Shown here: piece by piece, positions 47,445 through 62,613 of the stretch
How the letters are laid out: every line of letters starts with the position of its first letter
How positions within the stretch are numbered: position 1 is the stretch's first letter
Source: Proteiniphilum sp.
Lineage (GTDB): Bacteria; Bacteroidota; Bacteroidia; Bacteroidales; Dysgonomonadaceae
Direction: 5' to 3'
Assembly (NCBI GenBank): GCA_028705255.1
Contig: JAQWDW010000006.1
Location: forward strand, 5,562-69,561
DNA length: 64,000 bases
Notes under the pieces: model-generated
Databases searched by the model: none
What the model was told of the DNA's origin: nothing
What the model saw: the letters and a program-made list of their open reading frames with translations, nothing else
Translations under genes and position numbers: made by a program

Positions 47445-48566
47445 TCATTTTCCAAATCCCAATCTTTGCAGCTCAAGTAAAACAGCCGGAGCCGCTTGAT
47501 CTACCCTGTAGGCCGGATATTCCCGTCGCAGGGGATAGTTGGAGCGAAACCAGTAAAATTTTTCCGGTGCAGCCTTGAGAGCCTCAGTCTCCTTCACTGG
47601 GTCATAGCTATGCCATACTGCGTGAGCCAGCTGTTCCCCGGGAGAGATGTGCTGCAAGTCAATCACAGGCTGTTCGGGGTGGGGCATCTCATTGTATAAC
47701 GGATTGATGTCCAATTCAAAAAAGTCCCGCAAATTCTCGAGGCTCATTTTCGTGGCAGTCCATTTTCCGTCGGCACTGTATCCGGCAATGTGGGGTGTGG
47801 CGATATCGGCCAGCTCAAGAAGGTCGCGGTCTATCTCAGGTTCATTCTCCCAACAATCGATTACCACCCCTGAGATGGTTTTCTCACTGAGTGCCTTTTT
47901 CAGGGCCTGGTTGTCGGTAATAGCACCACGGGCGGCATTGATGATAAATGGCTTTCGAGCGAGGCGCTGTAGAAATGCATCATCTGCTAGGTGAAAGGTT
48001 GCGTAAGGACCTTTTTTTGTCAGGGGAGTGTGAAAGGTGATGATGTCGGCCTCTTGTGTAATTACCTCCATGTCGACAAACAGTCCTGCTGCATTTCCCT
48101 CTTTTTCTGCCCGGGGCGGGTCGTTGAGCAGCACCCTCATTCCCAGCTTGCGGCATGCTGCCTCCACCTTGCTTCCCACATTTCCAACACCCACAATGCC
48201 AATGGTTTTCTCTTTCAATGTGAACTGATACTTTCGTGCCAGCCACAGGAGTGAGGCAGTGACATACTGTTCCACCGAGTTGGCATTGCAGCCGGGTGCG
48301 GTACGCCAGGCAATGTTGTGTTCGTCGCAATAAGCCGTGTCGATGTGGTCGTAACCGATGGTAGCCGAGCAGATCAGTTTCACTGCGGTGTTTTCGAGGA
48401 TCTCTTTCCCAAAATGCGTTACCGTGCGTACAATCAACGCATCTTTGTCCTTGATAGCTTCCTGGGTGAACTGATTCCCCGGCAGGTATTCCACTTCGCC
48501 CAATTGTTCTGCTACCCCCTTCAGGAAGGGTATATGCGCATCGGCCAGTATTCTCAGCTTCATCAT
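47445..48566 (-). CDS. pdxB: Erythronate-4-phosphate dehydrogenase
   Basis: LIVRTVT, SATIG.DHID, PGCNA.SV, GVGNVG, TFHTPL, INAARG, DCWENEP, TPHIAGYS.DGK. Confidence 0.93.
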   Translation of the reverse strand: MMKLRILADAHIPFLKGVAEQLGEVEYLPGNQFTQEAIKDKDALIVRTVTHFGKEILENTAVKLICSATIGYDHIDTAYCDEHNIAWRTAPGCNANSVEQYVTASLLWLARKYQFTLKEKTIGIVGVGNVGSKVEAACRKLGMRVLLNDPPRAEKEGNAAGLFVDMEVITQEADIITFHTPLTKKGPYATFHLADDAFLQRLARKPFIINAARGAITDNQALKKALSEKTISGVVIDCWENEPEIDRDLLELADIATPHIAGYSADGKWTATKMSLENLRDFFELDINPLYNEMPHPEQPVIDLQHISPGEQLAHAVWHSYDPVKETEALKAAPEKFYWFRSNYPLRREYPAYRVDQAAPAVLLELQRLGFGK

Positions 48567-50029
48567 GAATGAATTAAATGGGTATGCATTGCTTTGGCTG
48601 CTTTTCTGCCGTCGCCCATGGCCAGGATGACCGTGGCTCCACCGCGTACGATGTCACCTCCGGCATAAATCGTCTCGTCGGCGGTTTGCATGGTGTCGCT
48701 GTCCACCACAATTGTTCCCCAGGAGGTTACTTCCAATCCGCTGAATGATTGTGGTATCAGTGGGTTGGGGGAGACCCCCACGCTCACGATAACCTCGTCG
48801 ACTTCGAGCCAGATTGTGTCACCCTCAATGGCGACCGGGCGGCGGCGTCCCGACTGATCGGGTTCACCCAGCTGCATTCGTTGCAGCTGCATCCGCTGTA
48901 CGTGCCCTCGCTCATCCCCTTCATATCGGAGTGGGTTGTGCAGTGTGTAGAAATCAATTCCTTCCTCCTTGGCATGCTTCACTTCCTCCACGCGGGCCGG
49001 CATCTCTTCTTCGGAGCGGCGGTAGATGATCATTGCCTTTTCCGCGCCCAGTCTTCGAGCAGTGCGCACCGCATCCATGGCGGTGTTGCCGCCGCCAATC
49101 ACGGCCACTTTCTTTCCCTTGTATACCGGAGTATCACTCTCCGGATCGGCTGCCTGCATGAGGTTCACCCGGGTGAGATATTCGTTGCACGACATGATGC
49201 CGATCAGGTTCTCCCCTGGTATGTTCATGAAGTTGGGCAGGCCGGCGCCACTGCCTACAAAAATGCCGCTAAAGCCGGCTTCCCTGAGATATTCCTGTGA
49301 AATGGTTTTTCCCACGATGCAATTCGTTTCGAACTTCACGCCCATTTTCCGGAGTCCGTCGATCTCTACGTCCACGATCTCATTGGGCAGGCGGAATTCG
49401 GGGATGCCGTATCGCAAGACCCCTCCCAGCTCGTGAAGTGCTTCAAACACGGTGACGTCGTAACCCCGTTTCACCATGTCGCCGGCAAAAGCCAGGCCAG
49501 CAGGGCCCGAGCCCACAACTGCTATTTTAATGCCATTGGCGGGGTCGATCTCCGGAACAGACATCTTGCCGCTTTTCCGTTCATAATCGGCCGCAAAGCG
49601 CTCCATATAGCCAATGGCCACGGGTTCTTTCTTTAACTTCAGTGTATAAAAACATTGGCTCTCACATTGCCGTTCCTGGGGACATACACGTCCGCATACT
49701 GCCGGAAGGGCGCTTGTTTCTTTCAGCGTGCGGGCTGCCTCCAGGTAGTCGCCCCGTTCTATGTTTTTGATGAACTTGGGGATGTTGATCTCTACCGGAC
49801 ATCCGGTGATGCAGGTAGGATCCACGCAATCGAGGCAGCGGTGTGATTCCTCCCGGGCCATTGCTTCGGTCAGGCCAAGGTTTACTTCGTCGTAAGTGTG
49901 GCTGCGTATTTCGGGATCCACCTCGGGCATTTTGACTCGGGGTATGGCGGTCCGATCTTTACTCTTCATCGATTTGCGCAGGGTCTCACGCCACTCCTGT
50001 GCTCTTTCCGCCTGTAAATATTCGCTCAT
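48563..50029 (-). CDS. nfnB: NfnB/SudA-like flavo-Fe-S subunit (GltD homologue)
   Basis: RCLDC..P.C..GCPV, CGRVCPQE.QCE, GSGPAGL, GGGNTAMD, GGDIVRGGATV. The adjacent nfnA and the absence of gltB argue against glutamate synthase. Confidence 0.85.
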   Translation of the reverse strand: MSEYLQAERAQEWRETLRKSMKSKDRTAIPRVKMPEVDPEIRSHTYDEVNLGLTEAMAREESHRCLDCVDPTCITGCPVEINIPKFIKNIERGDYLEAARTLKETSALPAVCGRVCPQERQCESQCFYTLKLKKEPVAIGYMERFAADYERKSGKMSVPEIDPANGIKIAVVGSGPAGLAFAGDMVKRGYDVTVFEALHELGGVLRYGIPEFRLPNEIVDVEIDGLRKMGVKFETNCIVGKTISQEYLREAGFSGIFVGSGAGLPNFMNIPGENLIGIMSCNEYLTRVNLMQAADPESDTPVYKGKKVAVIGGGNTAMDAVRTARRLGAEKAMIIYRRSEEEMPARVEEVKHAKEEGIDFYTLHNPLRYEGDERGHVQRMQLQRMQLGEPDQSGRRRPVAIEGDTIWLEVDEVIVSVGVSPNPLIPQSFSGLEVTSWGTIVVDSDTMQTADETIYAGGDIVRGGATVILAMGDGRKAAKAMHTHLIHS

Positions 50030-50082
50030 ATTATTGATGTTTCTTTCTTGTAGATAACCTGAAACAAATGTCCCTTTTTTAT

Positions 50083-50865
50083 TTAATTATAAGCCTTTAG
50101 TCGCATCAGCATCTCATCGAAGTCAACCTGATGGGCATCGAACTCGGGGCCGTCGATGCAGACAAATTTTGTTTTTCCTCCCACGGTCACGCGACAGGCG
50201 CCACACATTCCGGTGCCGTCCACCATGATGGTATTGAGTGAGGCGAGGGTAGGGACCTCATATTTCTTAGTCAACTGTGCCACAAATTTCATCATGATGG
50301 CTGGGCCAATGGTGACACACAAGTCTACTTTCTCCCGTTGTATCACTTTTTCCACCCCTTGGGTGATGAGTCCCTTTTCTCCATATGAACCATCATCGGT
50401 CATGACGATCACCTCATCGGAGTATTGAGCTACCTGTTCTTCGAGTATGACAAGTTCCTTTGTGCGGGCGGCCAGGACGGAGATCACTCTGTTGCCGGCT
50501 TTTTTCATCGCTTCAATAATGGGCAACATGGGTGCCACACCCACGCCTCCTCCTGCACAAACCACTGTGCCAAAGTTTTCGATGTGGGTAGCCTTACCGA
50601 GTGGTCCAACCAGGTCAGTAATGTAGTCGCCTACCTCAAGGCTGCACACCTTTTCCGATGATTTGCCCACGCGTTGAATGACCAGGGTGATTGTGCCTTT
50701 CTGGGGATCGGCAGCCGCAATGGTATAGGGCACCCTTTCACCTTTTTTTCCCACACGTACGATTACAAAATGGCCGGCTTTGCGGCTTTTGGCTATCAGT
50801 GGTGCCTCCACTTCAAGGCGTACCACTTTCTCTGAAAAATTTTCCTTTGCAATAATCTTGTTCAT
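50083..50865 (-). CDS. nfnA: NfnA/SudB-like FAD/2Fe-2S subunit
   Basis: GERVPYTI, GPLG, GGGVG.AP, MVDGTGMCGACRV...CIDGPEF. Confidence 0.88.
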   Translation of the reverse strand: MNKIIAKENFSEKVVRLEVEAPLIAKSRKAGHFVIVRVGKKGERVPYTIAAADPQKGTITLVIQRVGKSSEKVCSLEVGDYITDLVGPLGKATHIENFGTVVCAGGGVGVAPMLPIIEAMKKAGNRVISVLAARTKELVILEEQVAQYSDEVIVMTDDGSYGEKGLITQGVEKVIQREKVDLCVTIGPAIMMKFVAQLTKKYEVPTLASLNTIMVDGTGMCGACRVTVGGKTKFVCIDGPEFDAHQVDFDEMLMRLKAYN

Positions 50866-53067: not shown

Positions 53068-53790
53068 TCAGCTTTTCAGTAAAGCGTTTTCAATGGTTTC
53101 TTTTGAGAGTTTTTTCGTGCAGAAGAACCAATCATAACAATGCATTTCTTCCTCTCTGGTTTCCATTCGTTCTTTAGCTACACCGCAGGAACCGGCTGTA
53201 GGTACGATCACTTCATCTCCCGGACGCCAGTCGGCAGGCAAGGCGACTCCAAATTCATCGGCTGTCTGTAAACCGATAAGGATACGCTTCAGTTCGTCAA
53301 AATTACGGCCAAGTGATAACGGGTAGTAGATAATTGTGCGAATAATACCCCTGGGATCCACGAAAAAAACAGCTCGGACAGCCTGTGTGGAGTTCTCGTT
53401 GGGTTGAATCATCCCATACTTTTTGGCAACTTCCATCGAGATATCCTCAATCAATGGAAAGGTAACTTCTACCTCTTTCATCCCCTTATATTCAATTTTT
53501 TCTTTAATGGTACGCAACCAGGCTATATGGCTGTACAACCCATCCACAGATAATCCAACCAACTGGCAGTTCAGATTTTCAAAATCTTTTTGCATCGAAG
53601 CAAATGTCATGAACTCAGATGTGCATACCGGTGTAAAATCGGCAGGATGACTAAATAGTATCTTCCATTTTCCGGGAAAGTCATCCGGGAAATGAATAAC
53701 GCCCTGCGTTGTTTTTGCTGTAAAAATAGGAGCTTTGTCGCCGATTCGAGGCATAGGAGTAGTGTTTTCTTGATTTGTTTCCATTTTCAT
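53068..53790 (-). CDS. Peroxiredoxin, Prx6-type with extra C-terminal Cys
   Basis: SHPADFTPVCTSE (peroxidatic Cys), GRNFDE, PADW.PG, GSC, CYDWFFC. Confidence 0.92.
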   Translation of the reverse strand: MKMETNQENTTPMPRIGDKAPIFTAKTTQGVIHFPDDFPGKWKILFSHPADFTPVCTSEFMTFASMQKDFENLNCQLVGLSVDGLYSHIAWLRTIKEKIEYKGMKEVEVTFPLIEDISMEVAKKYGMIQPNENSTQAVRAVFFVDPRGIIRTIIYYPLSLGRNFDELKRILIGLQTADEFGVALPADWRPGDEVIVPTAGSCGVAKERMETREEEMHCYDWFFCTKKLSKETIENALLKS

Positions 53791-53909
53791 TTCATTTTAA
53801 ATTAATTACTATATGTTATAAGTGAACAAGTTATAGGTATAGATATACAATAATAAACTGAAGATTCTTGTCAGATGTATAACACGACATTTCCAAATGC
53901 AAATGATAA

Positions 53910-54142
53910 TTATTTTTCGCATGGCCTGGACCAGGCCGAAATACCACCCTCCAGCACTTTCACATTGGTGAACCCGTTTGCCTGTAGGTAATCAGATAGG
54001 GAATCTCAATACAATCGCCAACGGCATAGATATCGGGATCGGATGTCTGCTAGATGGTTATCTCTGCATTCTCATCCATGCGACGTGCTTTAGAAGCTGC
54101 TTTTGGCCATGCAGCAGAACCGCCTATAACAACAACTTTCAT
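53910..54142 (-). pseudogene. Collapsed CoA-disulfide-reductase/rhodanese fusion gene (three fragments)
   Basis: MKVVVIGGSAAWPKAASKARRMDENAEITI* (54142-54050), then QTSDPDIYAVGDCIEIPYLIT (54049-53987), then in another frame LQANGFTNVKVLEGGISAWSRPCEK* (53987-53910). Its ATG overlaps the DUF134 stop (ATGA). Confidence 0.85.
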
Positions 54143-54555
54143 TTTTCTTCCCCATTAATCGGTATTAACTCGTTATTGCCAAAACTTGTACAATTCTTAC
54201 AACGTACATGGTTCTCGATACCTCCTATCAATTTGTAACAACGCCTGCAACGAAACCATTCTTTGTCAAACTGCACATTACCACCCTCTATATTGATCAT
54301 CTTTCCTTCCACAAATGCCTGAGCAATAGTTTTACGGGCTTGTTCATAGATACGCGTCAGAGTGGGTCGGGAAACGTTCATCCGTTCAGCTGCCTGATCC
54401 TGGTTCAAACCTTCATAATCCAATAAACGGATTGCCTCATATTCATCATACAGCAATGAAACAGCACTCAACCTGTTCCGTGGAATGCCAAAGGGTTTAA
54501 ATCCCTGCATCAGGGGAGGATTCGATATTTTTCGGTTTTGTTTGGGACGAGGCAT
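54139..54555 (-). CDS. DUF134 family HTH regulator with a C-terminal CxxC-x12-CxxC
   Basis: MPRPK..R.I...P....FKP.G, DEYEAIRL.D.EGL.Q..AA.RM.VSRPTL.RI...AR..IA.A.VEGK; CRRC and CKNC. Confidence 0.9.
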   Translation of the reverse strand: MPRPKQNRKISNPPLMQGFKPFGIPRNRLSAVSLLYDEYEAIRLLDYEGLNQDQAAERMNVSRPTLTRIYEQARKTIAQAFVEGKMINIEGGNVQFDKEWFRCRRCYKLIGGIENHVRCKNCTSFGNNELIPINGEEK

Positions 54556-54607
54556 GATTTCAATTATCTATTTTTGTTACTTTGAAATCCAAAGATATAA
54601 AATAATT

Positions 54608-54623
54608 TTAAACTTATGTTCGT
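54608..54623. promoter_or_regulatory. Palindromic operator copy B (DUF134 promoter)
   Basis: TTAAACTTATGTTCGT matches ATGAACATATGTTCAT at 12/16. It lies 11-26 nt upstream of the minus-strand -7 box TATCTTTG (54597-54590). Confidence 0.5.
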
Positions 54624-54753
54624 AAATAAAATTATTTTTGATCCTAATTTTCCTCGGTTCTGTTTTTTTAATTTTCTCATTTTCTGATGTAAGAAAATTT
54701 CATATTACATTTTTTAGGCTACAAAAAAAATCGCAAAAAAATATACAAATTTA

Positions 54754-54785
54754 TTTGCATATCGAACATATGTTCATTACATTTG
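54754..54785 (+). promoter_or_regulatory. Promoter of the ORP-like operon with operator copy A in its spacer
   Basis: TTTG (54754-57), 20 nt spacer, TACATTTG (54778-85). The spacer holds TCGAACATATGTTCAT (54762-77; 14/16), including the perfect palindrome GAACATATGTTC. Confidence 0.75.
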
Positions 54786-54848
54786 CCGCATATTTAAAGC
54801 AAGGTACTTCTATAAGCTATCATAAAACCAAATAGAAAATATCATCCT

Positions 54849-55172
54849 ATGAAAGTAGCCATCACATCATCCGGCAAGGAACTGACATCTCTACCGGACA
54901 AGCGTTTCGGACGCTGCAACTGTTTTGTCATCTACGACACCGAGAACGACTCGGTGGAGGTTGTGGATAATCCCGGCAGGGATCTAAACGAGGGTGCGGG
55001 ACCTGCCGCTGCACAGCTGATCGCATCGAAAGGAGCCGAGATGATCATCACAGGACATTTGGGAGGAAAAGCAGCATCAATAGTGCAACAGCTCGGGATG
55101 CAGATGACTCCCCTGGATGAACAACACAGAAGTGTGGAAGAAGTAATTCAATTAATCAAACAAAACAATTAA
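54849..55172 (+). CDS. NifB/NifX (Di-Nase FeMo-co domain) protein, Orange-protein-like
   Basis: MKVAI.S.G, DKRFGRC..FVIYD, GAG..AAQ, IITG.LG.KA. Confidence 0.85.
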   Translation: MKVAITSSGKELTSLPDKRFGRCNCFVIYDTENDSVEVVDNPGRDLNEGAGPAAAQLIASKGAEMIITGHLGGKAASIVQQLGMQMTPLDEQHRSVEEVIQLIKQNN

Positions 55173-55188
55173 ACAAAAGGAGGGTATT

Positions 55189-55464
55189 ATGCCAGGAATG
55201 AACAGAAAAGGCCCCGATGGAATGGGCGCTATGAGTGGGAGAGGACGTGGTCGTTGTAACCCGTCGAACAGAGAGGCTAATAGCTTTGATGCTTCTGAAG
55301 GAGCCGGGATGAATGCTCCTTTGCAACAGGGTGCCGGAATAGGCATGGGCCAGGGACAAGGCAGAGGCATGGGACAAGGCCAAGGCCAGGGCAGAGGCAT
55401 GGGTCAGGGCCAGGCCCAGGGAATGAGAAGAAGAGACGGATCTGGTAGAAGACGAATAGGATGA
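55189..55464 (+). CDS. DUF5320-like small Gly-rich protein
   Basis: MPG..R.GP.G.G.MSGRG.G.C N-terminus followed by Gly/Met/Gln/Arg low-complexity repeats. Confidence 0.7.
   Translation: MPGMNRKGPDGMGAMSGRGRGRCNPSNREANSFDASEGAGMNAPLQQGAGIGMGQGQGRGMGQGQGQGRGMGQGQAQGMRRRDGSGRRRIG
55342..55425 (+). repeat. Imperfect coding tandem repeat (GMGQGQG[QG]R x3)
   Basis: GGCATGGGC.., GGCATGGGA.. and GGCATGGGT.. units with synonymous divergence. Confidence 0.8.
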
Positions 55465-55799
55465 AGCAGGTTATCGCAATACCGCTGGAAGAGGGGAGAC
55501 TCTGTCAGCATTTTGGCCATTGTCAACAGTTTGCCATCATCGAAACGGAAGATGGAGCCATACAGAACGAGACGTTACTAACACCCCCCCCACATGAACC
55601 GGGGCTGTTGCCGGCATGGCTCGCCGAGAGAGGCATCACCGAGGTGATTGCGGCCGGTATCGGGCAGAAAGCGATTCGTCTGTTTGAACAACATAATATC
55701 AAGGTGCACGTGGGTGCCGAGTATAAGAGTCCGCGGGAGCTGGTTATCGATCATTTTAAACAGTCACTGGTCACCGGTCTCAATGCCTGTGACCACTAG
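55461..55799 (+). CDS. NifB/NifX (Di-Nase) protein, HFGHC/PPPHEPG/CDH type
   Basis: AIP..EGRLCQHFGHC, PPPHEPG.LP.W, IAAGIG.KA, terminal CDH. ATGA overlap with the previous gene. Confidence 0.85.
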   Translation: MKQVIAIPLEEGRLCQHFGHCQQFAIIETEDGAIQNETLLTPPPHEPGLLPAWLAERGITEVIAAGIGQKAIRLFEQHNIKVHVGAEYKSPRELVIDHFKQSLVTGLNACDH

Positions 55800-55812
55800 A
55801 AGAGTTGATTCT

Positions 55813-56682
55813 GTGGAAGCAGATTACCGATGTTATTTTTGCTTTGCCCGTACCATTGAGCGACTGATAGAGAAGCATACGCTCACATCTGCCGAGAAAA
55901 AAGCGCTTGCAGCTGAGATGTTCTCCCATTTTCACAATGGGGCTTCCGGTTTTTCCATTCCCGTTCTCTCAAGAGAAGTCTTTCGTATCTTCAGAGAGAG
56001 GAGTGGGGTAGCCGATCCTTACGAAAAGATTAAATATGAGAGCAACGAGCGTCTGCTCGGTGAGTATGCGATGTTTCGGGAGATGATTGACCAATCGGAT
56101 GATCCCTTCGAGGTAGCATTGCGTCTGGCAGTGGCCGGGAACATCATCGATTATGGGGTGAGCGACCACCATGATTTGGAAGAGACAATGGAAAATGTGC
56201 TGAAAAGCACTTTCGCGATTAATCATGTGGGGCGGCTCAAACGGCGGCTGGCTGAAGCCAGAACAGTCCTTTACCTAGGCGATAATGCCGGAGAGATTGT
56301 ATTTGACAAACTGTTCATCGAAACCTTTCATCATCCCAACATATGGTATGCTGTGCGAGGGACACCGGTGATTAACGATGCCACACGGAAAGATGCAGAC
56401 CAAGTGGGGATGGAAGAGGTGGCAAAGGTCATTGACAACGGTTATGATGCCCCCTCTACCCTGCCGGAGAAGTGTTCTCCCTCCTTTCAGCAGCTTTACA
56501 ATGAAGCGGATCTGGTGATTTCAAAAGGTCAGGGTAATCTGGAGGGATTGATTGATGCCTCCAGGCGTAACATCTTCTTTCTGCTAATGGTGAAGTGCAA
56601 TGTGATAGCCGACAGGCTGGGAGTGAAAAAGGGTGGTTTCGTATGTACTGAGAACAAACCAAAAAAAGAAAAAGCAGGATGA
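55813..56682 (+). CDS. DUF89/ARMT1-like damage-control metal phosphatase
   Basis: CxxC near the N-terminus, AGNIID, DNAGEIVFD, INDAT, SKGQGN.E.L, KC. The start is taken at GTG 55813; the track extension overlaps the upstream gene. Confidence 0.88.
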   Translation: MEADYRCYFCFARTIERLIEKHTLTSAEKKALAAEMFSHFHNGASGFSIPVLSREVFRIFRERSGVADPYEKIKYESNERLLGEYAMFREMIDQSDDPFEVALRLAVAGNIIDYGVSDHHDLEETMENVLKSTFAINHVGRLKRRLAEARTVLYLGDNAGEIVFDKLFIETFHHPNIWYAVRGTPVINDATRKDADQVGMEEVAKVIDNGYDAPSTLPEKCSPSFQQLYNEADLVISKGQGNLEGLIDASRRNIFFLLMVKCNVIADRLGVKKGGFVCTENKPKKEKAG

Positions 56683-57536
56683 AGATTGCAATAGCCAGTG
56701 GTAAGGGAGGTACTGGCAAGACCTTTGTCTCGACCAATCTCTTCTGGGTCGCTTCACAGAAGGGCTTCGATTGTGTGCTGGCCGACTGTGATGCAGAGGA
56801 ACCCAATGTGGCGGAATTTCTTGTCGGTGAGGAGGTACAGGTTGAAGAGGTCTATCAGCAGGTGCCGGTGATCGACCCGGAGAGATGTGCCTTCTGCGGG
56901 AAATGTTACGACTACTGCAGCTACAATGCCATCCTTTACCTGCCTGAGAAAAAGATGATTCAGGTGCTGCCCGATCTCTGTCACGACTGTGGTGCCTGCA
57001 GCTATGTTTGTCAAGCGGGAGCGATCACCGAGCATCCCAAGATGCTGGGCAAGGTGAAGCGTGCTGCATACGGAATCGGTCAGCAGATTGTTGAAGGTCG
57101 TGCCGAGGTGGGAGTCTACACACCCGCTCCGGTCATTACCCGTGCTATTCGTGAGGCTGGTGACAGAGAACTGGTGCTCCTCGACTCTCCCCCCGGCATC
57201 TCATGTCCCTTTATCGCGACGGTCGACAGGGCCGACTATGTGGTGCTGGTCAGTGAACCCACCCCCTTTGGGCTGCACGACCTGCAGCTATCTGCAGCCA
57301 CGGTTCGGAAGTTGGGTAAGCCGTTTGGTGTGGTGGTCAATAGAGCCGGACTGGGAGACAATGAAATATACCGGTGGCTTGAACAGGAGACGATCCCTCT
57401 CTTGTTGGAGATTCCTTTCGACCGGAAGGTGGCACGTATCTATGCCGAGGGAGGACTGCCTGCTGCAGTGGATAACGCCTACCGGGAGATGTTCAGCCGT
57501 CTGCTCGCACAAATCGTTCAACAAAACATCTCATGA
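56679..57536 (+). CDS. MinD/ParA-like P-loop ATPase with a 2x[4Fe-4S] insert (ATPase 1)
   Basis: SGKGGTGKT, DCDAEEPN, CAFCGKC...C and CHDCGAC...C, DSPPG.SCP, EPTPFGLHD. Confidence 0.9.
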   Translation: MKIAIASGKGGTGKTFVSTNLFWVASQKGFDCVLADCDAEEPNVAEFLVGEEVQVEEVYQQVPVIDPERCAFCGKCYDYCSYNAILYLPEKKMIQVLPDLCHDCGACSYVCQAGAITEHPKMLGKVKRAAYGIGQQIVEGRAEVGVYTPAPVITRAIREAGDRELVLLDSPPGISCPFIATVDRADYVVLVSEPTPFGLHDLQLSAATVRKLGKPFGVVVNRAGLGDNEIYRWLEQETIPLLLEIPFDRKVARIYAEGGLPAAVDNAYREMFSRLLAQIVQQNIS

Positions 57537-58399
57537 GACAAATTGTCATTATAAGCGGAAAAGGAGGAACAGGCAAGACAAGCCTGAGTGCAGCACTGGC
57601 AACCATGGGTGAACGGCTGATGGTAGCCGACTGCGATGTGGATGCAGCCAACCTGCATCTGTTGCTGGAGCCGACCGATCATTCCCGGCACCCTTTTCCC
57701 ACCGGAGCCAAGGCATTAATCGACCAGCAGCGATGTACACAATGCGGTGCCTGCATGGATCTTTGTCGCTTCGATGCGATCCGGTACCAAGAAGATCATT
57801 ACACCATCTCTGAAACATCATGTGACGGATGTTATCTCTGCATGCGCATCTGTCCGGCTGACGCCATCAGCATGATTGAGAGCAATGGCAGCTACTGGAA
57901 AACCGGCACCTTCCGCAACGGCTGGATGGTACATGCCCAGCTGGAGCCCGGCGAGGAGAACTCCGGCAAACTGGTCAACGTAGTACGTAAGCAATCCCTT
58001 CAGCTGTCGGAGCAGATGGGAGTGGAGACCATCCTGATTGATGGCCCTCCCGGCACCGGCTGCCCCGCAATTTCTGCTATGAGCGGTGCCAACCTGGCAG
58101 TGCTGGTCACCGAGCCAAGTCGCTCCGGTTTCCATGATCTGAAGAGGATAAAGCAGCTTGCCGATGGGTTTGACATTCCCTCCGTTGTGGTGATCAACAA
58201 GTATGACCTGAACGAGCAGGTGACGACCGAGATCGAGTCGTGGTGCCGCAGCGAGCGTCTCTCACTAATCGGCAAGATCCCATTTGAACCGGCTGTGGTG
58301 GAGGCGATGCTGCAATGCCAGTCGGTGGTCGAGTGGGCACCCCGGTCTGCTGCAGCCGATGAAATTACGGCCATCCATCGGCAGATTTTTCAATCGTAG
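57533..58399 (+). CDS. MinD/ParA-like P-loop ATPase with a 2x[4Fe-4S] insert (ATPase 2)
   Basis: SGKGGTGKT, DCDVDAANLHL, CTQCGAC...C and CDGCYLC...C, GEENSGKLV, DGPPGTGCP. Confidence 0.9.
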   Translation: MRQIVIISGKGGTGKTSLSAALATMGERLMVADCDVDAANLHLLLEPTDHSRHPFPTGAKALIDQQRCTQCGACMDLCRFDAIRYQEDHYTISETSCDGCYLCMRICPADAISMIESNGSYWKTGTFRNGWMVHAQLEPGEENSGKLVNVVRKQSLQLSEQMGVETILIDGPPGTGCPAISAMSGANLAVLVTEPSRSGFHDLKRIKQLADGFDIPSVVVINKYDLNEQVTTEIESWCRSERLSLIGKIPFEPAVVEAMLQCQSVVEWAPRSAAADEITAIHRQIFQS

Positions 58400-58427
58400 T
58401 GACGGAACCATTTAAAGAGAAGAAGCG

Positions 58428-59363
58428 ATGATATGTTTCGGACCTGTACCCTCCCGGAGACTGGGACATAGCCTTGGTATCAACAATATACCAGGTGACA
58501 AGATCTGTACCTATGCCTGTATATACTGTCAGGTGGGGGCTACCCGTCATTACACCCTCGAGAGACAGTCGTTTTACACCCCGGAGCAGATCTTCTCTGC
58601 GGTGGAGGAGCACCTGGGCAAGTTACAGGCGATGCCAGACTATCTCACTTTCGTGCCGAACGGCGAACCTACACTTGATATACACCTGAAAGAGTCGATC
58701 CTCCTGTTGAAGCAGATCGGCCTTCCAATCGCTGTGATCACCAATGCTTCGCTGCTGAGTGATCAGCAGGTGCGTGATGCCCTATCGCTTGCCGATTGGG
58801 TATCGGTGAAGGTGGATGCAAGTGATGATGCTGTATGGAAGAGAATCAACAGACCCCATCCCAGGCTCACCTTTGAAGGTTATAAAGAGGGCCTCCAGGC
58901 TTTTGCCTCCTCCTATAAAGGTGTTCTGACTGCCGAGACCCTAATGGTGGAGGGTGTCAATGATTGGGCAAACCTGATGCAACAGAACGCTTCACTGATC
59001 GTGACCCTCAAACCGGCTACGGCCTATCTCTCCATTCCCACACGCCCCCCTGCGATGCGGAGTGTGAAGACACCGGATGAAGCAGCCATTAACAGGGCCT
59101 ATCAGATCTACACCGATGCCGGATTGTACAGTGAAATGCTGCTTGGCTTTGAAGGAAGCGATACCGGTTTCACCGGCGATGCCAGGGCTGATATCCTCAA
59201 TATGAGTGCCGTGCATCCCATACGAGAGGAGACCATGGGCGAGATACTGCGTAAGAACAGGGCAGAAAGCAGCCTGCCCGATCAGCTGATCAGAGAGAAA
59301 GAAATCCGTGAGGTTGTTTATCAGGATAAAAAGTTTTGGATTCGCAATTTTACAAGAAGATGA
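58428..59363 (+). CDS. Radical SAM protein of unknown function
   Basis: FGPVPSRRLG.SLG, CTYACIYC (CxxxCxxC), NGEPTL, ITNASLL, GVND. Confidence 0.9.
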   Translation: MICFGPVPSRRLGHSLGINNIPGDKICTYACIYCQVGATRHYTLERQSFYTPEQIFSAVEEHLGKLQAMPDYLTFVPNGEPTLDIHLKESILLLKQIGLPIAVITNASLLSDQQVRDALSLADWVSVKVDASDDAVWKRINRPHPRLTFEGYKEGLQAFASSYKGVLTAETLMVEGVNDWANLMQQNASLIVTLKPATAYLSIPTRPPAMRSVKTPDEAAINRAYQIYTDAGLYSEMLLGFEGSDTGFTGDARADILNMSAVHPIREETMGEILRKNRAESSLPDQLIREKEIREVVYQDKKFWIRNFTRR

Positions 59364-59442
59364 TTGTACCGATTGTGATATATGGTGCTTCTGCAAAAAC
59401 AATTGATACAGGGTAAATTAAATAAAAAAAAAAGAAGAGAAG

Positions 59443-60282
59443 ATGAACGAACAATGCAATGCAACCAAAAAACCGTTCGAGAAGACGAGATTGAACAACA
59501 TAAAAAATATACTCATCGTTGCCTCGGGCAAGGGAGGTGTTGGCAAGTCGACTGTGGCTGCCGCCCTGGCACTCTCGCTGGCAAGGGAGGGGTATACAAC
59601 CGGCCTGCTGGATGCCGATATCCATGGCCCTTCGGTGCCCACCCTCTTCCACCTGAACAACCAACGGCCGCTATCGATGGAGAAAGAGGGGAAGACCTGG
59701 ATTGAACCCTTTGACCGGTATGGCATCAAGGTGATCTCGATCGGTTTCTTCATCGATCCCTCCCAGTCACTTCTATGGCGCGGTCCCATGGTGTCGAATG
59801 CGCTCAAACAACTGCTCAATGATACCAACTGGGGAGAACTGGATTATCTGGTGATTGACACCCCGCCCGGCACAGGGGATGTACATCTGACCCTGCTGCA
59901 ATCGTACGAGATCACCGGTGCCGTGGTGGTAACCACGCCGCAGACCATCGCGCTGGATGATGTGATCAAAGCGATCGGGATGTTTAACAATAAGAATGTA
60001 TCGGTCCCCGTGCTGGGCATCGTGGAGAACATGGCCTGGTTCACTCCCTCGCTGCATCCCGATGAGAAATATTTCCTCTTTGGGCAGGGGGGTGGTGAGA
60101 AACTGTCGCAGCAGTTTCATCTGCCCCTGATCGCACAGATCCCCATGAATGAGCAGATCCGCCAAAGTTGTGACGAGGGCTCGCTCGATACCCTCTTTCA
60201 GGATGAGCAGATCGCACAATCATTCTCCGGCTTGGTAGATACTATTTTGGCCAATCAGAAAAAAGAAAGCACACATAAATAG
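59443..60282 (+). CDS. Mrp/NBP35 (ApbC-like) P-loop ATPase lacking the CxxC motif
   Basis: SGKGGVGKST, DADIHGPS, WRGPM, DTPPGTGD, VTTPQ, GIVENM. Confidence 0.92.
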   Translation: MNEQCNATKKPFEKTRLNNIKNILIVASGKGGVGKSTVAAALALSLAREGYTTGLLDADIHGPSVPTLFHLNNQRPLSMEKEGKTWIEPFDRYGIKVISIGFFIDPSQSLLWRGPMVSNALKQLLNDTNWGELDYLVIDTPPGTGDVHLTLLQSYEITGAVVVTTPQTIALDDVIKAIGMFNNKNVSVPVLGIVENMAWFTPSLHPDEKYFLFGQGGGEKLSQQFHLPLIAQIPMNEQIRQSCDEGSLDTLFQDEQIAQSFSGLVDTILANQKKESTHK

Positions 60283-60291
60283 AACAGCAGT

Positions 60292-60702
60292 ATGATCGAG
60301 CACGACTACATTTTCCGGGTCTTGTATCCCGATACTGACCAGATGGGAACCATGCACCATGCCAATTACGCAAAATACTACGAGGCAGCCCGTTGGGAAT
60401 TGTTCCGGAGCATCGGTATTTCTTACAAGTCGATCGAAGATGCCGGATACATGCTTCCTGTTACCAGGATGGATTTTCGTTTCCTTAAAACCACCCGGTA
60501 TGATGCTCTGCTAACTGCAAGAACAACCTTGACAGCCGTTAAAGGAGTCCGGCTCTGGTTCAGCTATAAACTATATAATGAAAAGCAGGAACTGATCAAT
60601 GAAGCAGAAACGGAACTGGCCTTCATAAAAAAGGAAAATTGGAAACCGTGCCGTACACCCGATTTCGTTTTAAAAGCCATTCACGCTAACCAGAAAACAT
60701 AA
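60292..60702 (+). CDS. Acyl-CoA thioesterase (YbgC/4HBT hot-dog fold)
   Basis: Y.DTDQMG..HHANY..YYE.AR. Confidence 0.88.
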   Translation: MIEHDYIFRVLYPDTDQMGTMHHANYAKYYEAARWELFRSIGISYKSIEDAGYMLPVTRMDFRFLKTTRYDALLTARTTLTAVKGVRLWFSYKLYNEKQELINEAETELAFIKKENWKPCRTPDFVLKAIHANQKT

Positions 60703-60749
60703 ATCGCCCATATTATTATATCGCATATAAAACTATTGAATTGTCCATT

Positions 60750-60900
60750 CTTCTTTTCCTCAACCCCAGGAAATCCCGATCCAAGCCGCTGCTTCAAGCC
60801 CCCGCCCATTAAAACATAAAAGTTTTTGAAAGCGGTATGATGGGCCAGCCTTATAAACGGGAAAAATATAAAACGAGGCTGGTGGAATCCTGTCCGTCAA
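60750..60900 (-). pseudogene. Possible eroded rhodanese-domain gene
   Basis: The minus strand reads ..DGQDSTSLVLYFSR, then after a frameshift IRLAH..AFKNFYVLMGGGLKQRLGSGFPGVEEK. This resembles the rhodanese LYC..G.RS...GF.NVY.L.GG...W...G.P pattern if TGT>TTT (C>F) and TGG>CGG (W>R) are assumed. Confidence 0.4.
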
Positions 60901-60936
60901 TCAGAATTTTAAGCAACAACTGAAAAATTAGCCAAG

Positions 60937-61683
60937 ATGAAACAAAAGTGGTGTAATAAATCAAACCTGAACCTGAGCATTGACATCATCATGTTATTAC
61001 TGCTCACGCCTTTGGCGGGAATCGGCTTCCTAATAAAATATGTCCTGATCCCCGGTATTCAACGGAACGAACACTACGGGGCTGGTGTTGAACTGGAATT
61101 TTGGGGACTAACACGTCACCAATGGGGATCCATTCACCTGATCATCAGCATCGTTTACCTCGTTCTTTTACTTCTTCACATTATTCTGCATTGGAAAATG
61201 GTTGTTGGATTTTTCAAACGGATGATTCCTAATGAAGCCTTACGTGCAATATCGGCCACACTGATTGCCAGTGCAAGTCTTCTCATGTTTGTCTTTCCTC
61301 TTTTTGTAAAACCGGAGATTGTTACAAGGGAATCGTTACATCTGAACAGAAAAATCAAACAGGAAACTCATCAAACCGTACCGAACGGAGAAATCCGTAA
61401 AAAAGTGTCAAAAGAAACAGAAAAGGATATAGTGGTTTCTCCCCGGGCGGGTCTGAATAAACCGGAACAGACCCTATCCGAAACTGTATTTGTTGACCCA
61501 GAGATCAACGGAAGGCAAACCCTGCAGTTTGTTGCCAACAAATACGACATACCAGTGGAAAAGCTTGCAACTGATCTGAACATCCCTTTAGACCGGGCCG
61601 GTGAAAAAATCGGAAGGCTACGGAAATTGTATGTCTTTACCATGAACGACGTGCGCAAAAGCATTATGAAAAATAAAGAATAG
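60937..61683 (+). CDS. DUF4405 membrane protein
   Basis: TM helices, TR..W..IHL..S..YL.LL.LHI.LHW His pattern, soluble C-terminal domain. Confidence 0.78.
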   Translation: MKQKWCNKSNLNLSIDIIMLLLLTPLAGIGFLIKYVLIPGIQRNEHYGAGVELEFWGLTRHQWGSIHLIISIVYLVLLLLHIILHWKMVVGFFKRMIPNEALRAISATLIASASLLMFVFPLFVKPEIVTRESLHLNRKIKQETHQTVPNGEIRKKVSKETEKDIVVSPRAGLNKPEQTLSETVFVDPEINGRQTLQFVANKYDIPVEKLATDLNIPLDRAGEKIGRLRKLYVFTMNDVRKSIMKNKE

Positions 61684-61781
61684 ACCACCTGTTGGCATAA
61701 CGTTGAATGTTAAAGTGAAACAATAGAAAAGTAAATGATGATTAGTAACCAAAATTGAAAGAAGCTGTGTTCATATATGCC

Positions 61782-62561
61782 TTAAAAGGTGTATGAGTCA
61801 CCTGTTTTTACCGATTGAATCGGAAAGTTCTCAGAAAATGCCACCAGCGCAGGTAATGCGGTACAGTGCGAGGGAATGACATGAGACACCCTGTTTTTTT
61901 TCAGGTAATTGATGGTCTCAATGGTTTGCCGGTCCCGGTTTTTCAGATGAAAACCGCCCATGATACCGTAAATCCTCTGCTCGCCGGTAATGTTTCTTGC
62001 CTGTTCCAGGGTGTTCACCACCCCGGCATGACCACAACCGGTGATCACAAACAATCCTTTCTCTGTCTGTAAAGCGACTGCACTGTCGTCCACTACAAAA
62101 TCGGCTGTTCCGTTCTCGAACGAGAAGGCGGTTTGTTTCGATTCAAAATCAGTGATGCGGGGTATCTCACCCAGAAAGAGCACAGAGTTACTGATAGCGT
62201 AAGGTGCTTTGCTGGTGATGAGGTCAAACTGCTCTGCTGTTTCTTTCCGGCTCATCCTCAGACCAATGTAGGTGTGATCGGTATTTCTATATCGCTTCAC
62301 AAAACAGTCTGGATGGCAGAGCAGCTTGCCTCCTGTGAGATGTGCCAGTCCATTTCCATGATCATAGTGACCGTGACTCAGGATAATCAGTTCCCTCTCC
62401 TCCGGATCAATACCCATGATGAAAGCATTTTGCAAGAAGAGATCACTCTGTCCCGTATCGAACAGGAACTTTATCCCTTCATGCTCTATAAAATAGGAGA
62501 GGCCGTGCTCTGCACCGACGGAGCCACCGGAATAATTATCGGTGAGAATTGAAACTTTCAT
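61782..62561 (-). CDS. MBL-fold metallo-hydrolase (COG1237-type)
   Basis: AEHGLS, FDTGQS, LSHGHYDHGNG, DDSA, GCGHAG, GGFHL, HCT. Confidence 0.9.
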   Translation of the reverse strand: MKVSILTDNYSGGSVGAEHGLSYFIEHEGIKFLFDTGQSDLFLQNAFIMGIDPEERELIILSHGHYDHGNGLAHLTGGKLLCHPDCFVKRYRNTDHTYIGLRMSRKETAEQFDLITSKAPYAISNSVLFLGEIPRITDFESKQTAFSFENGTADFVVDDSAVALQTEKGLFVITGCGHAGVVNTLEQARNITGEQRIYGIMGGFHLKNRDRQTIETINYLKKNRVSHVIPSHCTALPALVAFSENFPIQSVKTGDSYTF

Positions 62562-62597
62562 CTCTTTTTTTGCAAATATAACTATATAAATTTTATT

Positions 62598-62613
62598 ATG
62601 AACAAATGCTCAT
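62598..62613. promoter_or_regulatory. Palindromic operator copy C (MBL hydrolase promoter)
   Basis: ATGAACAAATGCTCAT (14/16). It overlaps the minus-strand TTTG (62606-03), 22 nt upstream of TATATTTG (62580-73). Confidence 0.65.

Follow-up and report, generated by a model that had tools for sequence, protein, structure and literature searches.

Gene content and organization of the locus

We analyzed a stretch of 64,000 nucleotides from Proteiniphilum sp. (Bacteroidota, Bacteroidales, Dysgonomonadaceae; assembly GCA_028705255.1, contig JAQWDW010000006.1, positions 5,562 to 69,561), hereafter the window, which carries at 54139-62611 a block of genes resembling the orange protein (ORP) genes of Desulfovibrio. 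The block consists of a nine-gene operon on the forward strand (54849-60702), in the order NifX1, DUF5320, NifX2, DUF89, ATPase1, ATPase2, radical SAM, Mrp, and thioesterase, together with a divergently oriented DUF134 gene and two satellite genes that encode a DUF4405 protein and an MBL-fold hydrolase. Its features are as follows.

54139-54555 (-), DUF134 protein (PF02001, 84.1 bits over profile positions 6-96 of 98, above the gathering cut-off of 27)
54556-54848 (no strand), divergent control region between DUF134 and NifX1
54849-55172 (+), NifX1 (PF02579/IPR003731, 69.7 bits)
55189-55464 (+), DUF5320-like protein (PF17253, 24.1 bits, E 8e-5, profile positions 1-58 only; cut-off 27)
55461-55799 (+), NifX2 (PF02579, 65.4 bits)
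55783-56682 (+), DUF89 protein (PF01937, 197.8 bits)
56679-57536 (+), ATPase1 (CbiA/ParA P-loop and two Fer4 motifs)
57533-58399 (+), ATPase2 (CbiA/ParA P-loop and two Fer4 motifs)
58428-59363 (+), radical SAM protein (PF04055, 56.4 bits)
59443-60282 (+), Mrp (PF10609, 296.6 bits)
60292-60702 (+), YbgC/FadM (4HBT) acyl-CoA thioesterase, the last gene of the operon (TIGR00051, 81.1 bits with a cut-off of 68.7; PF13279, 54 bits)
60937-61683 (+), satellite DUF4405 membrane protein, 234 nt past the thioesterase (PF14358, 44.4 bits)
61782-62561 (-), satellite MBL-fold metallo-hydrolase of the COG1237 type (PF00753, 34.8 bits)

From first to last, the junctions of the operon are a 16-nt gap, an ATGA overlap, a 17-nt overlap (NifX2/DUF89), two more ATGA overlaps, and gaps of 28, 79, and 9 nt, the three ATGA overlaps lying at DUF5320/NifX2, DUF89/ATPase1, and ATPase1/ATPase2. 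The sole in-frame ATG of DUF89 is at 55783, and the TTG listed at 55648 is an unlikely start. No terminator-like sites were found inside the operon outside coding repeats, and this, with the overlaps and short gaps, indicates that the nine genes are probably co-transcribed. The GC content of the operon is 51.6%, compared with 45.9% for the window and 36.9% just upstream. A first-pass annotation of this DNA had described an ORP-like metallocluster operon under DUF134 in a window free of nitrogenase genes, and its ten domain calls, coordinates, and three ATGA overlaps are as it gave them. Because the only two PF02579 domains of the host assembly (2.97 Mb, 97% complete) both sit in the operon, no NifX/NafY-type nitrogenase set is indicated in the host.

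The ORP gene set and its ATPase pair

In Desulfovibrio, the ORP complex contains the related proteins Orp3 and Orp4, with two [4Fe-4S] motifs each, and Orp8, which is a single Di-Nase domain; MrpORP combines an Mrp P-loop with a Di-Nase domain, and the orp genes are expressed from two divergent sigma54 operons (PMC6345978; PMC3897727). Orp3, Orp4, and Orp8 co-purify, and MrpORP hands Fe-S to them (PMC6345978). With the orp genes of D. vulgaris Hildenborough (Orp3/DVU2103, Orp4/DVU2104, Orp5, Orp8/DVU2108, and MrpORP/DVU2109) and the D. gigas orange protein (2WFB), the block shares an Orp8-type NifX1, two paralogous MinD-like 2x[4Fe-4S] ATPases, an Mrp-type P-loop protein, a CxHFGHC/CDH Di-Nase domain, and an occurrence only in anaerobes. 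It differs in that MrpORP is split here into two genes 3.6 kb apart, that its Mrp has no CxxC and scores no better as MrpORP than as ApbC, and that a single operon with DUF134 and a palindrome takes the place of two divergent operons dependent on sigma54, an enhancer-binding protein (EBP), and IHF; there is no EBP gene in the block. DUF5320, DUF89, radical SAM, thioesterase, DUF4405, and MBL are added. At the level of sequence, the block can be firmly assigned as the Bacteroidales (Proteiniphilum) form of an anaerobe-wide ORP-type gene set. The earlier call of an ORP-type cluster therefore holds, given the 37.5% identity of NifX1 to 2WFB, the MrpORP motifs of NifX2, and the one-to-one correspondence of the ATPases with pairs that stand beside proteins above the MrpORP cut-off.

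ATPase1 and ATPase2, ca. 31% identical to each other and of the same architecture, are MinD/ParA-type deviant-Walker-A ATPases of the Orp3/Orp4 kind, into which a 2x[4Fe-4S] ferredoxin domain is inserted. A tree of 163 such sequences was rooted with Mrp, and loci with proteins passing NCBI's MrpORP cut-off served as stand-ins for the Desulfovibrio orp genes (DVU2103 and DVU2104 were not included). ATPase1-type sequences formed one clade (85 sequences, support 94) and ATPase2-type sequences another (78, support 99), with the archaeal sequences as one clade inside each. The ATPases of the window fell in a Bacteroidota-dominated group with support of 98-100, and both clades also contained the pairs adjoining proteins above the MrpORP cut-off. 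Because each type forms one clade across bacteria and archaea, the pair is an old duplication that was retained as a pair, and the ATPases of the window are orthologous to those found with bona fide MrpORP.

The motif SGKGGTGK, the eight ferredoxin Cys, and a Cys that follows the Walker B Asp by seven residues (DxPPGxxC; Cys176 in ATPase1) are conserved in 99-100% of the 163 ATPases, and the Cys of the DCD motif at 95% and 67%. We take the spacing between the Walker B Asp and Cys176 to equal that of Asp125 and Cys132 in NifH, where the Cys is a cluster ligand. Deviant Walker A with its signature Lys and the invariant Cys at +7 of the Walker B Asp are common to the pair and to SIMIBI ATPases of the NifH/BchL/CfbC and Mrp/Nbp35 types. 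These differ from the pair, which has a complete 2x[4Fe-4S] ferredoxin domain inserted after switch I and no second NifH-type ligand at the Cys97 position. The family of the pair has no member with a solved structure. ATPase1 and ATPase2 are likely heterodimer partners.

One species of the genus (G015; G and L numbers denote genomes and loci of relatives) has three copies of the ATPase pair, on contigs C178, C234, and C141 (L005, L020, and L019). Two of these copies are of nearly the same type (87-89% to the window) and the third is divergent (53%), a pattern that suggests either repeated acquisition or duplication.

Distribution and recurrent neighbors

A census based on the ATPase1 alignment and one genome per species gave 80 loci, none of them from Desulfovibrio, of which 43 had full flanks. 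They come from Bacteroidota, Desulfobacterota, Planctomycetota, Chloroflexota, Clostridia, Cloacimonadota, Spirochaetota, and others, and, among the archaea, from Bathyarchaeia, Methanosarcina, Methanothrix, Methanocellaceae, and Thermoplasmata. In the loci with full flanks, the genes of the block recurred as follows.

ATPase2 beside ATPase1: 42 of 43
NifX1: 41 of 43
NifX2: 34 of 43
Mrp: 24 of 43
DUF134: 22 of 43, across phyla
DUF89: 13 of 43, archaea included
DUF5320 motif: 12 of 43
Radical SAM: 10 of 43, archaea included
MBL-fold hydrolase: 8 of 43
Thioesterase: 5 of 43, Bacteroidota only
DUF4405: 4 of 43, Bacteroidota only

A Methanocellaceae locus brings together DUF134, Mrp, NifX1, NifX2, DUF89, both ATPases, MBL, and radical SAM. 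The modules listed as extra in the first-pass annotation are not peculiar to this genome: the ATPase pair has DUF134, DUF5320, DUF89, radical SAM, and MBL as recurrent neighbors in Desulfobacterota, Planctomycetota, Chloroflexota, and archaea. Since the same genes are found in the census and in loci such as that of Methanocellaceae, the extra modules are recurrent accessories of the ORP-type system and not additions of this genome. Within Bacteroidales the distribution is patchy: 5 of 25 genomes of the genus have the cluster, as do 6 of the 16 other families sampled.

This pattern bears on the role first proposed for Desulfovibrio ORP, in cell division or positioning, to which the MinD-like ATPases and the polar MrpORP had pointed. 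A part in septum positioning has been proposed in the literature (PMC3897727; PMC6345978), and both ATPases match MinD models (TIGR01969, 55-83 bits). Those scores are, however, far below the MinD cut-offs, no MinC/MinE or division gene recurs in the neighborhood, and the conserved partners are all metal-sulfur proteins. The absence of the cluster from most species of the genus would also be odd for a division role, which we consider very improbable.

Two loci in metagenome bins labeled Hyphomicrobiales (L033 and L050) have the Bacteroidota-type gene order and ATPases that group with Bacteroidota, and L033 also has the Bacteroidota-type palindrome described below; these labels may be wrong.

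A split MrpORP with an altered Mrp

NifX2 aligns to positions 265-364 of the MrpORP model NF041136 with 118.3 bits (E 4e-34), has CQHFGHCQ near its N-terminus and ACDH at its C-terminus, and gave no match to 2WFB at E<=0.01. In MrpORP, the Di-Nase domain opens with CxHFGHC(E/Q) and closes with CDH (PMC6345978). With both signatures present, NifX2 is recognizable as a stand-alone Di-Nase domain of MrpORP.

The equivalog cut-off of NF041136 is 450 bits, for one polypeptide with an Mrp/NBP35 P-loop and a C-terminal Di-Nase domain. The window falls outside this single-polypeptide definition, as Mrp (277 bits, positions 1-257) and NifX2 (118 bits) are separate genes. Fused Mrp-NifX2 proteins are encoded at L055, L072, L088, L090, and L101 and score 501-518 bits, above the cut-off; these five loci belong to Desulfobacterota, Planctomycetota, and unclassified bacteria, and in each the fusion lies beside an ATPase1/ATPase2 pair.

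The Mrp of the operon is a short, NBP35-type protein with no DUF59 domain, in which ENMAWFTPSLHPDEKYFLFG replaces the cluster-binding CxxC. In MrpORP this CxxC (C215/C218 in D. vulgaris Hildenborough) binds a transferable bridging [4Fe-4S] cluster (PMC6345978). It is absent from all 13 Mrps of Bacteroidota operons and from 119 of the 120 nearest database homologues, a search that yielded only the short CxxC-less subfamily, and present in 24 of 26 operon Mrps of other phyla. The CxxC-less proteins have in common the motif ENM[AS]WFTPxxHP[DE]EKY[FY]. Lack of the CxxC is a trait of every Bacteroidota copy examined and no lesion peculiar to this genome. The inclusion of Mrp in the ORP core by the first-pass annotation stands insofar as an Mrp-type P-loop protein is present, but the protein is not a clean MrpORP orthologue, because it scores 277 bits on MrpORP against 275.5 bits on ApbC and has no CxxC.

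NifX1, DUF5320, and the link to IssA

In a search of the PDB, NifX1 matched the D. gigas orange protein (2WFB) at E 3.9e-14 with 36 of 96 residues identical (37.5%), as well as 1RDU (TM1290; E 5e-15) and 1EO1 (MTH1175; E 1.3e-11). MTH1175 belongs to the clade of IssA, a protein of Pyrococcus that joins an IPR003731 domain to a cationic, Gly-rich, disordered tail with one Cys and binds anionic thioferrate (PMC5524996). NifX1 is assignable by these matches to the NifX-fold proteins of the Orp8/orange-protein type and probably to the IssA clade.

The DUF5320-like protein starts with an MP..GP..GRGRGRC motif that has its one Cys, followed by a tail of Gly/Gln/Met/Arg repeats. It has a pI of 11.9, 27 Gly (30%), 13 Arg, and no Trp or Tyr, and its positional homologues score 92-109 bits on PF17253. 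No functional literature on DUF5320 was found. Because the tail region of the gene (55336-55428) is made of imperfect DNA repeats of 18/12/24 nt (GGC ATG GGN CAR GGN ...), its length is probably unstable between strains; in relatives the protein is 66-99% identical and the flanking genes 83-100%. A match of one homologue to a "sulphur globule protein" (E 0.003) was dismissed as compositional.

Elsewhere, seven proteins (27-48 bits on PF17253) of Chloroflexota, Methanobacteriota, Desulfobacterota, and Bacteroidota (a Paludibacteraceae genome) combine a NifX1-type domain and a DUF5320 tail in one chain, and two of the seven are NifX1-DUF5320-NifX2 triple fusions. Because of these fusions, DUF5320 is probably tied functionally to NifX1, and they would connect the ORP and IssA literatures. 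NifX1 and DUF5320 may together be a split IssA-like iron-sulfide binder whose parts are fused in other phyla. The resemblance to IssA, the thioferrate-binding iron-sulfur storage protein of Pyrococcus furiosus (PF2025), and to its "IssX" relatives lies in the NifX-fold domain, probably of the MTH1175/IssA clade, in the cationic, Gly-rich, one-Cys tail, and in the fact that in other phyla both parts form one polypeptide beside the same ATPase pair. The differences are that the tail is here on a separate gene, is Gln/Met-rich, and has no aromatic residues, and that IssA is not reported with the ATPase pair.

In three Desulfobacterales proteins (L090:1170-2162, L081:8456-9349, and L094:399-1235), NifX1, a Gly/Arg tail with a coiled coil, and NifX2 are in one polypeptide, whose NifX2 part keeps the HFGH and CDH/CSH motifs.

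Another cargo has to be considered, namely sulfides of Mo or W with Cu: the NifX-fold proteins would bind thiomolybdate-copper and buffer or detoxify the thiometallates of sulfidic habitats. The relative of NifX1 in D. gigas, at the 37.5% identity given above, carries a non-covalent S2MoS2CuS2MoS2 cluster (PMC6345978), and a cationic tail would suit any anionic metal sulfide. However, no gene for the transport of Mo, W, or Cu or for a cofactor of these metals was recognized in the block or in the recurrent neighborhood, the recurring partners (Mrp and the ferredoxin-type ATPases) are Fe-S proteins, and both MrpORP's Di-Nase domain and IssA bind Fe-S species (PMC6345978; PMC5524996). We regard thiometallate handling as unlikely.

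DUF134 and a putative operator

The divergent gene encodes a helix-turn-helix regulator of the DUF134 (UPF0251) family with a C-terminal CxxC...CxxC module that is common to its Bacteroidota homologues. Like other DUF134/UPF0251 (COG1342) predicted DNA-binding proteins, it matches PF02001 over its full length and adjoins NifX-like and MinD-ferredoxin genes, as happens in many anaerobes; it differs from them in that a 12-bp palindrome can be assigned here by phylogenetic footprinting within Bacteroidota. No published function or operator of a DUF134 member was found in the searchable literature.

The palindrome, with the consensus GAACAWWTGTTC, marks the promoters of NifX1, DUF134, and MBL genes in Bacteroidota. 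In the window, a perfect copy (GAACATATGTTC, 54764-54775) lies 2 nt upstream of TACATTTG (54778-54785), and a weaker second site, AAACTTATGTTC, is found on the DUF134 side at 54610-54621. TACATTTG is a putative -7 box of the Bacteroidetes type, preceded at a distance of 21 nt by TTTG. A third site, GAACAAATGCTC at 62600-62611 (GAGCATTTGTTC on the MBL strand), is placed 19 nt upstream of the MBL -7 box TATATTTG; at the corresponding site L015 and L016 have GAACATTTGTTC, and L034 and L036 have GAACTTTTGTTC (L015 is contig C55 of genome G002, and L016 is from G017).

In 37 Bacteroidota loci with a total of 605 kb, there were 39 sites with at most one mismatch to GAACAWWTGTTC, and 28 of them fell within the 3% of sequence situated no more than 250 bp upstream of a NifX1, DUF134, or MBL gene (binomial P ~3e-34, uncorrected for relatedness); none of 140 internal genes had such a site upstream. 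The loci with the palindrome include some whose proteins are only 35-60% identical to those of the window. The case for an operator rests on placement and conservation across genomes, because the window by itself has no more sites than chance would give (4 against 3.5 expected). A sigma54-type GG-N10-GC element is absent from 54556-54848, and a scan for sigma70-type promoters is uninformative for Bacteroidota. Control by DUF134 instead of sigma54, already suggested in the first-pass annotation, finds support in the conserved operator and the lack of GG-N10-GC, and the data support a DUF134 regulon with repressor-like placement of its sites.

Several DUF134 proteins (L042, L099, L084, L066, L062, and L081 genes) end in Gly/Arg-rich tails like that of DUF5320, and in one protein of Clostridiales (L100:8909-9604) DUF134 and a NifX2-type domain are joined. 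The tails and this fusion hint that DUF134 may sense the cargo of the system. Many Bacteroidota DUF134s have a second module, CICPxC...CPEC.

DUF134 is followed directly, with an ATGA overlap, by what remains of a pyridine-nucleotide-disulfide oxidoreductase gene interrupted by a stop (53791-54142, -), which reads MKVVVIGGSAAWPKAASKARR...*...TSDPDIYAVGDC and resembles CoA-disulfide reductase or NADH oxidase. In other Bacteroidota its position is taken by an MBL gene of 276-280 amino acids.

The surroundings of DUF134 could speak for a system that repairs or re-loads oxygen-damaged Fe-S clusters and is switched on by oxidative or thiol stress. A 1-Cys-type peroxiredoxin (AhpC/TSA and 1-cysPrx_C, 53068-53790, -) is located beside DUF134, as it also is in L015, L019, L025, L035, L037, and L058, the relic after DUF134 is CoA-disulfide-reductase-like, and the Cys-rich C-terminus of DUF134 could sense redox. 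Yet a peroxiredoxin adjoins the cluster in only 4 of the 43 full-flank loci, no palindrome with at most one mismatch is found upstream of the peroxiredoxin genes, and the system is equally common in strict anaerobes such as methanogens and Bathyarchaeia. Repair of oxygen damage as the purpose of the system seems to us improbable.

Accessory genes

DUF89 is an ARMT1-like predicted metal-dependent phosphatase in which the DNAGE and KGQGN motifs are present. Its scores on the NCBIfam equivalogs (175.5 and 137.7 bits) are below the cut-offs of 440 and 500, and we found no link to the cluster in the DUF89 literature. The proteins of L015 are 91-100% identical to those of the window. In G017 (L016), DUF89, radical SAM, Mrp, and thioesterase are absent, and ca. 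1.9 kb are inserted between NifX1 and DUF5320.

The radical SAM protein has a GPVPSRRLGxSLG N-terminus, a single CX3CX2C, and a C-terminal domain that is helical or winged-helix-like. Its family has an invariant GPxxSRRxxxSLG, and the only invariant Cys are C27, C31, and C34 of the SAM cluster. A search of the PDB with the single sequence gave no match and one with a profile gave weak matches to viperin, MoaA, QueE, and TYW1. An AlphaFold2 (AF2) model with pLDDT 86.8 matched PFL-AE, RlmN, NifB, TYW1, and viperin about equally well in Foldseek, with no winner. We considered and rejected a NifB-like protein: the auxiliary K-cluster ligands are missing, there is no match to TIGR01290, and NifB was no better in Foldseek than PFL-AE, RlmN, or viperin, so that a NifB-like role is unlikely.

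These results also weigh on the idea that the operon is a remnant of nitrogenase-type cofactor (NifB-co/FeMo-co) maturation, which would account for a NifX fold occurring twice and for NifB among the Foldseek matches of the radical SAM protein (TM 0.54, 17-20% identity). Against it, the three SAM-cluster Cys of that protein come with no auxiliary ligands, the two PF02579 domains of the operon are the only ones in the 97%-complete genome, and a P-loop search of the genome gave no NifH-like match. Such an origin is barely credible.

The thioesterase does not reach the equivalog cut-offs of Tol-Pal YbgC and MenI; its gene comes after Mrp in 5 of 16 loci of Bacteroidota, and the census shows this arrangement in no other phylum. 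DUF4405 also stands beside the cluster in L015, L021, L024, L025, L034, and L049. The MBL protein matches 2P4Z (E 1e-29) and 3H3E (TM1679; E 3e-28) in the PDB, and an MBL gene is beside the cluster in 21 loci, archaea included. Because DUF4405 and MBL recur with the cluster elsewhere, and the MBL promoter has the palindrome of the operon, both belong to the block, whose earlier borders were too narrow.

The radical SAM, DUF89, MBL, and thioesterase proteins might together make a small organic or organometallic molecule, with NifX and the ATPases as carriers or reductases. Radical SAM and MBL do co-occur (10 of 17 against 11 of 72 loci, Fisher P 5e-4, uncorrected), and the weak sequence relatives of the radical SAM protein (viperin, MoaA, QueE, and TYW1) act on nucleotides. 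However, by the counts listed above, all four enzymes are optional, while nearly every locus has the NifX/ATPase core; the closest relative has a truncated DUF89; none of the recurrent neighbors is a synthase, ligase, or transporter of the sort expected in a product pathway; and the fold search gave no specific match for the radical SAM protein. We judge this reading quite unlikely, and the sequence data lend no support to the small-molecule product or the Mo/Cu cofactor that had been suggested for the locus.

Proposed function

The locus is a further instance of a widespread, partly studied cluster with lineage-specific twists, and not a new system. As to what it does, we lean slightly toward the ATP-driven holding and hand-on of anionic iron-sulfide under the control of DUF134, which we infer to be the most likely function. 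NifX1 and the cationic DUF5320 tail would be the holder of inorganic iron-sulfide in anionic form (small Fe-S fragments or material like thioferrate), and a small Fe-S cluster would sit on NifX2, the detached Di-Nase domain. The two ATPases would pair as an ATP-dependent sandwich heterodimer, with two [4Fe-4S] clusters and the invariant Cys in each, in which nucleotide turnover might be coupled to electron or cluster transfer, so that the NifX carriers are loaded or unloaded. DUF134 would bind GAACAWWTGTTC at the promoters of the operon, of its own gene, and of MBL and, as this site overlaps the -33 and -7 boxes or falls between them, would act as their repressor; metal or cluster status may be sensed through its Cys-rich C-terminus. 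The CxxC-less Mrp, DUF89, radical SAM, MBL, thioesterase, and DUF4405 would be accessory modules.

Several observations weigh against iron-sulfide holding and hand-on. When isolated, the orange protein itself contained a Mo-Cu-S cluster and not iron sulfide. The published hand-on step cannot work unchanged here, because Mrp has no CxxC, which MrpORP needs. The DUF5320 tail is free of aromatics, unlike the Trp/Gly/Arg pattern stressed for IssA, and scores below the Pfam cut-off. The presumed parallel between Cys176 and the NifH ligand is drawn from spacing, not from a structure. In the closest relative, G002 (L015, 13898-14571), DUF89 has lost ca. 117 N-terminal residues, and only 5 of 25 genomes of the genus have the cluster, so that the system or parts of it are dispensable.

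We also put forward, tentatively and with some doubt, a wider version of iron-sulfide handling, in which ORP-type loci might be an anaerobe-wide, self-regulated machine for storing and mobilizing inorganic iron sulfide. NifX proteins and DUF5320-type tails would nucleate Fe-S, the ferredoxin-ATPase heterodimer would load and release it by means of ATP and low-potential electrons, and DUF134 would be a cluster-sensing repressor of an undescribed kind. Bacteroidota would have rewired this machine, with the CxxC of Mrp exchanged for WFTPxxHP(D/E)EKY and with a free Di-Nase carrier.

Fe-S storage and traffic in strict anaerobes are poorly understood, and the ORP complex and IssA, the sole pieces studied, have so far been treated separately. 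The present locus and its relatives place both in one conserved gene neighborhood, which has a dedicated regulator with a traceable operator and, at its center, a fixed ATPase pair. Proteiniphilum and its relatives in Bacteroidales, fermenters that live in anaerobic digesters and can be cultivated, could serve as a model for gene knock-outs and anaerobic biochemistry, and their CxxC-less Mrp is a natural test of whether the published hand-on from Mrp to Orp is essential.

Other genes of the window

At 48563-50865 (-), two genes of ca. 55% GC resemble an NfnAB/sulfide-dehydrogenase-type pair. The pair, for which no tie to the cluster was seen in other genomes, would encode a GltD-like protein of 488 amino acids with Fe-S motifs and an FAD/NAD-binding subunit of 260 amino acids.

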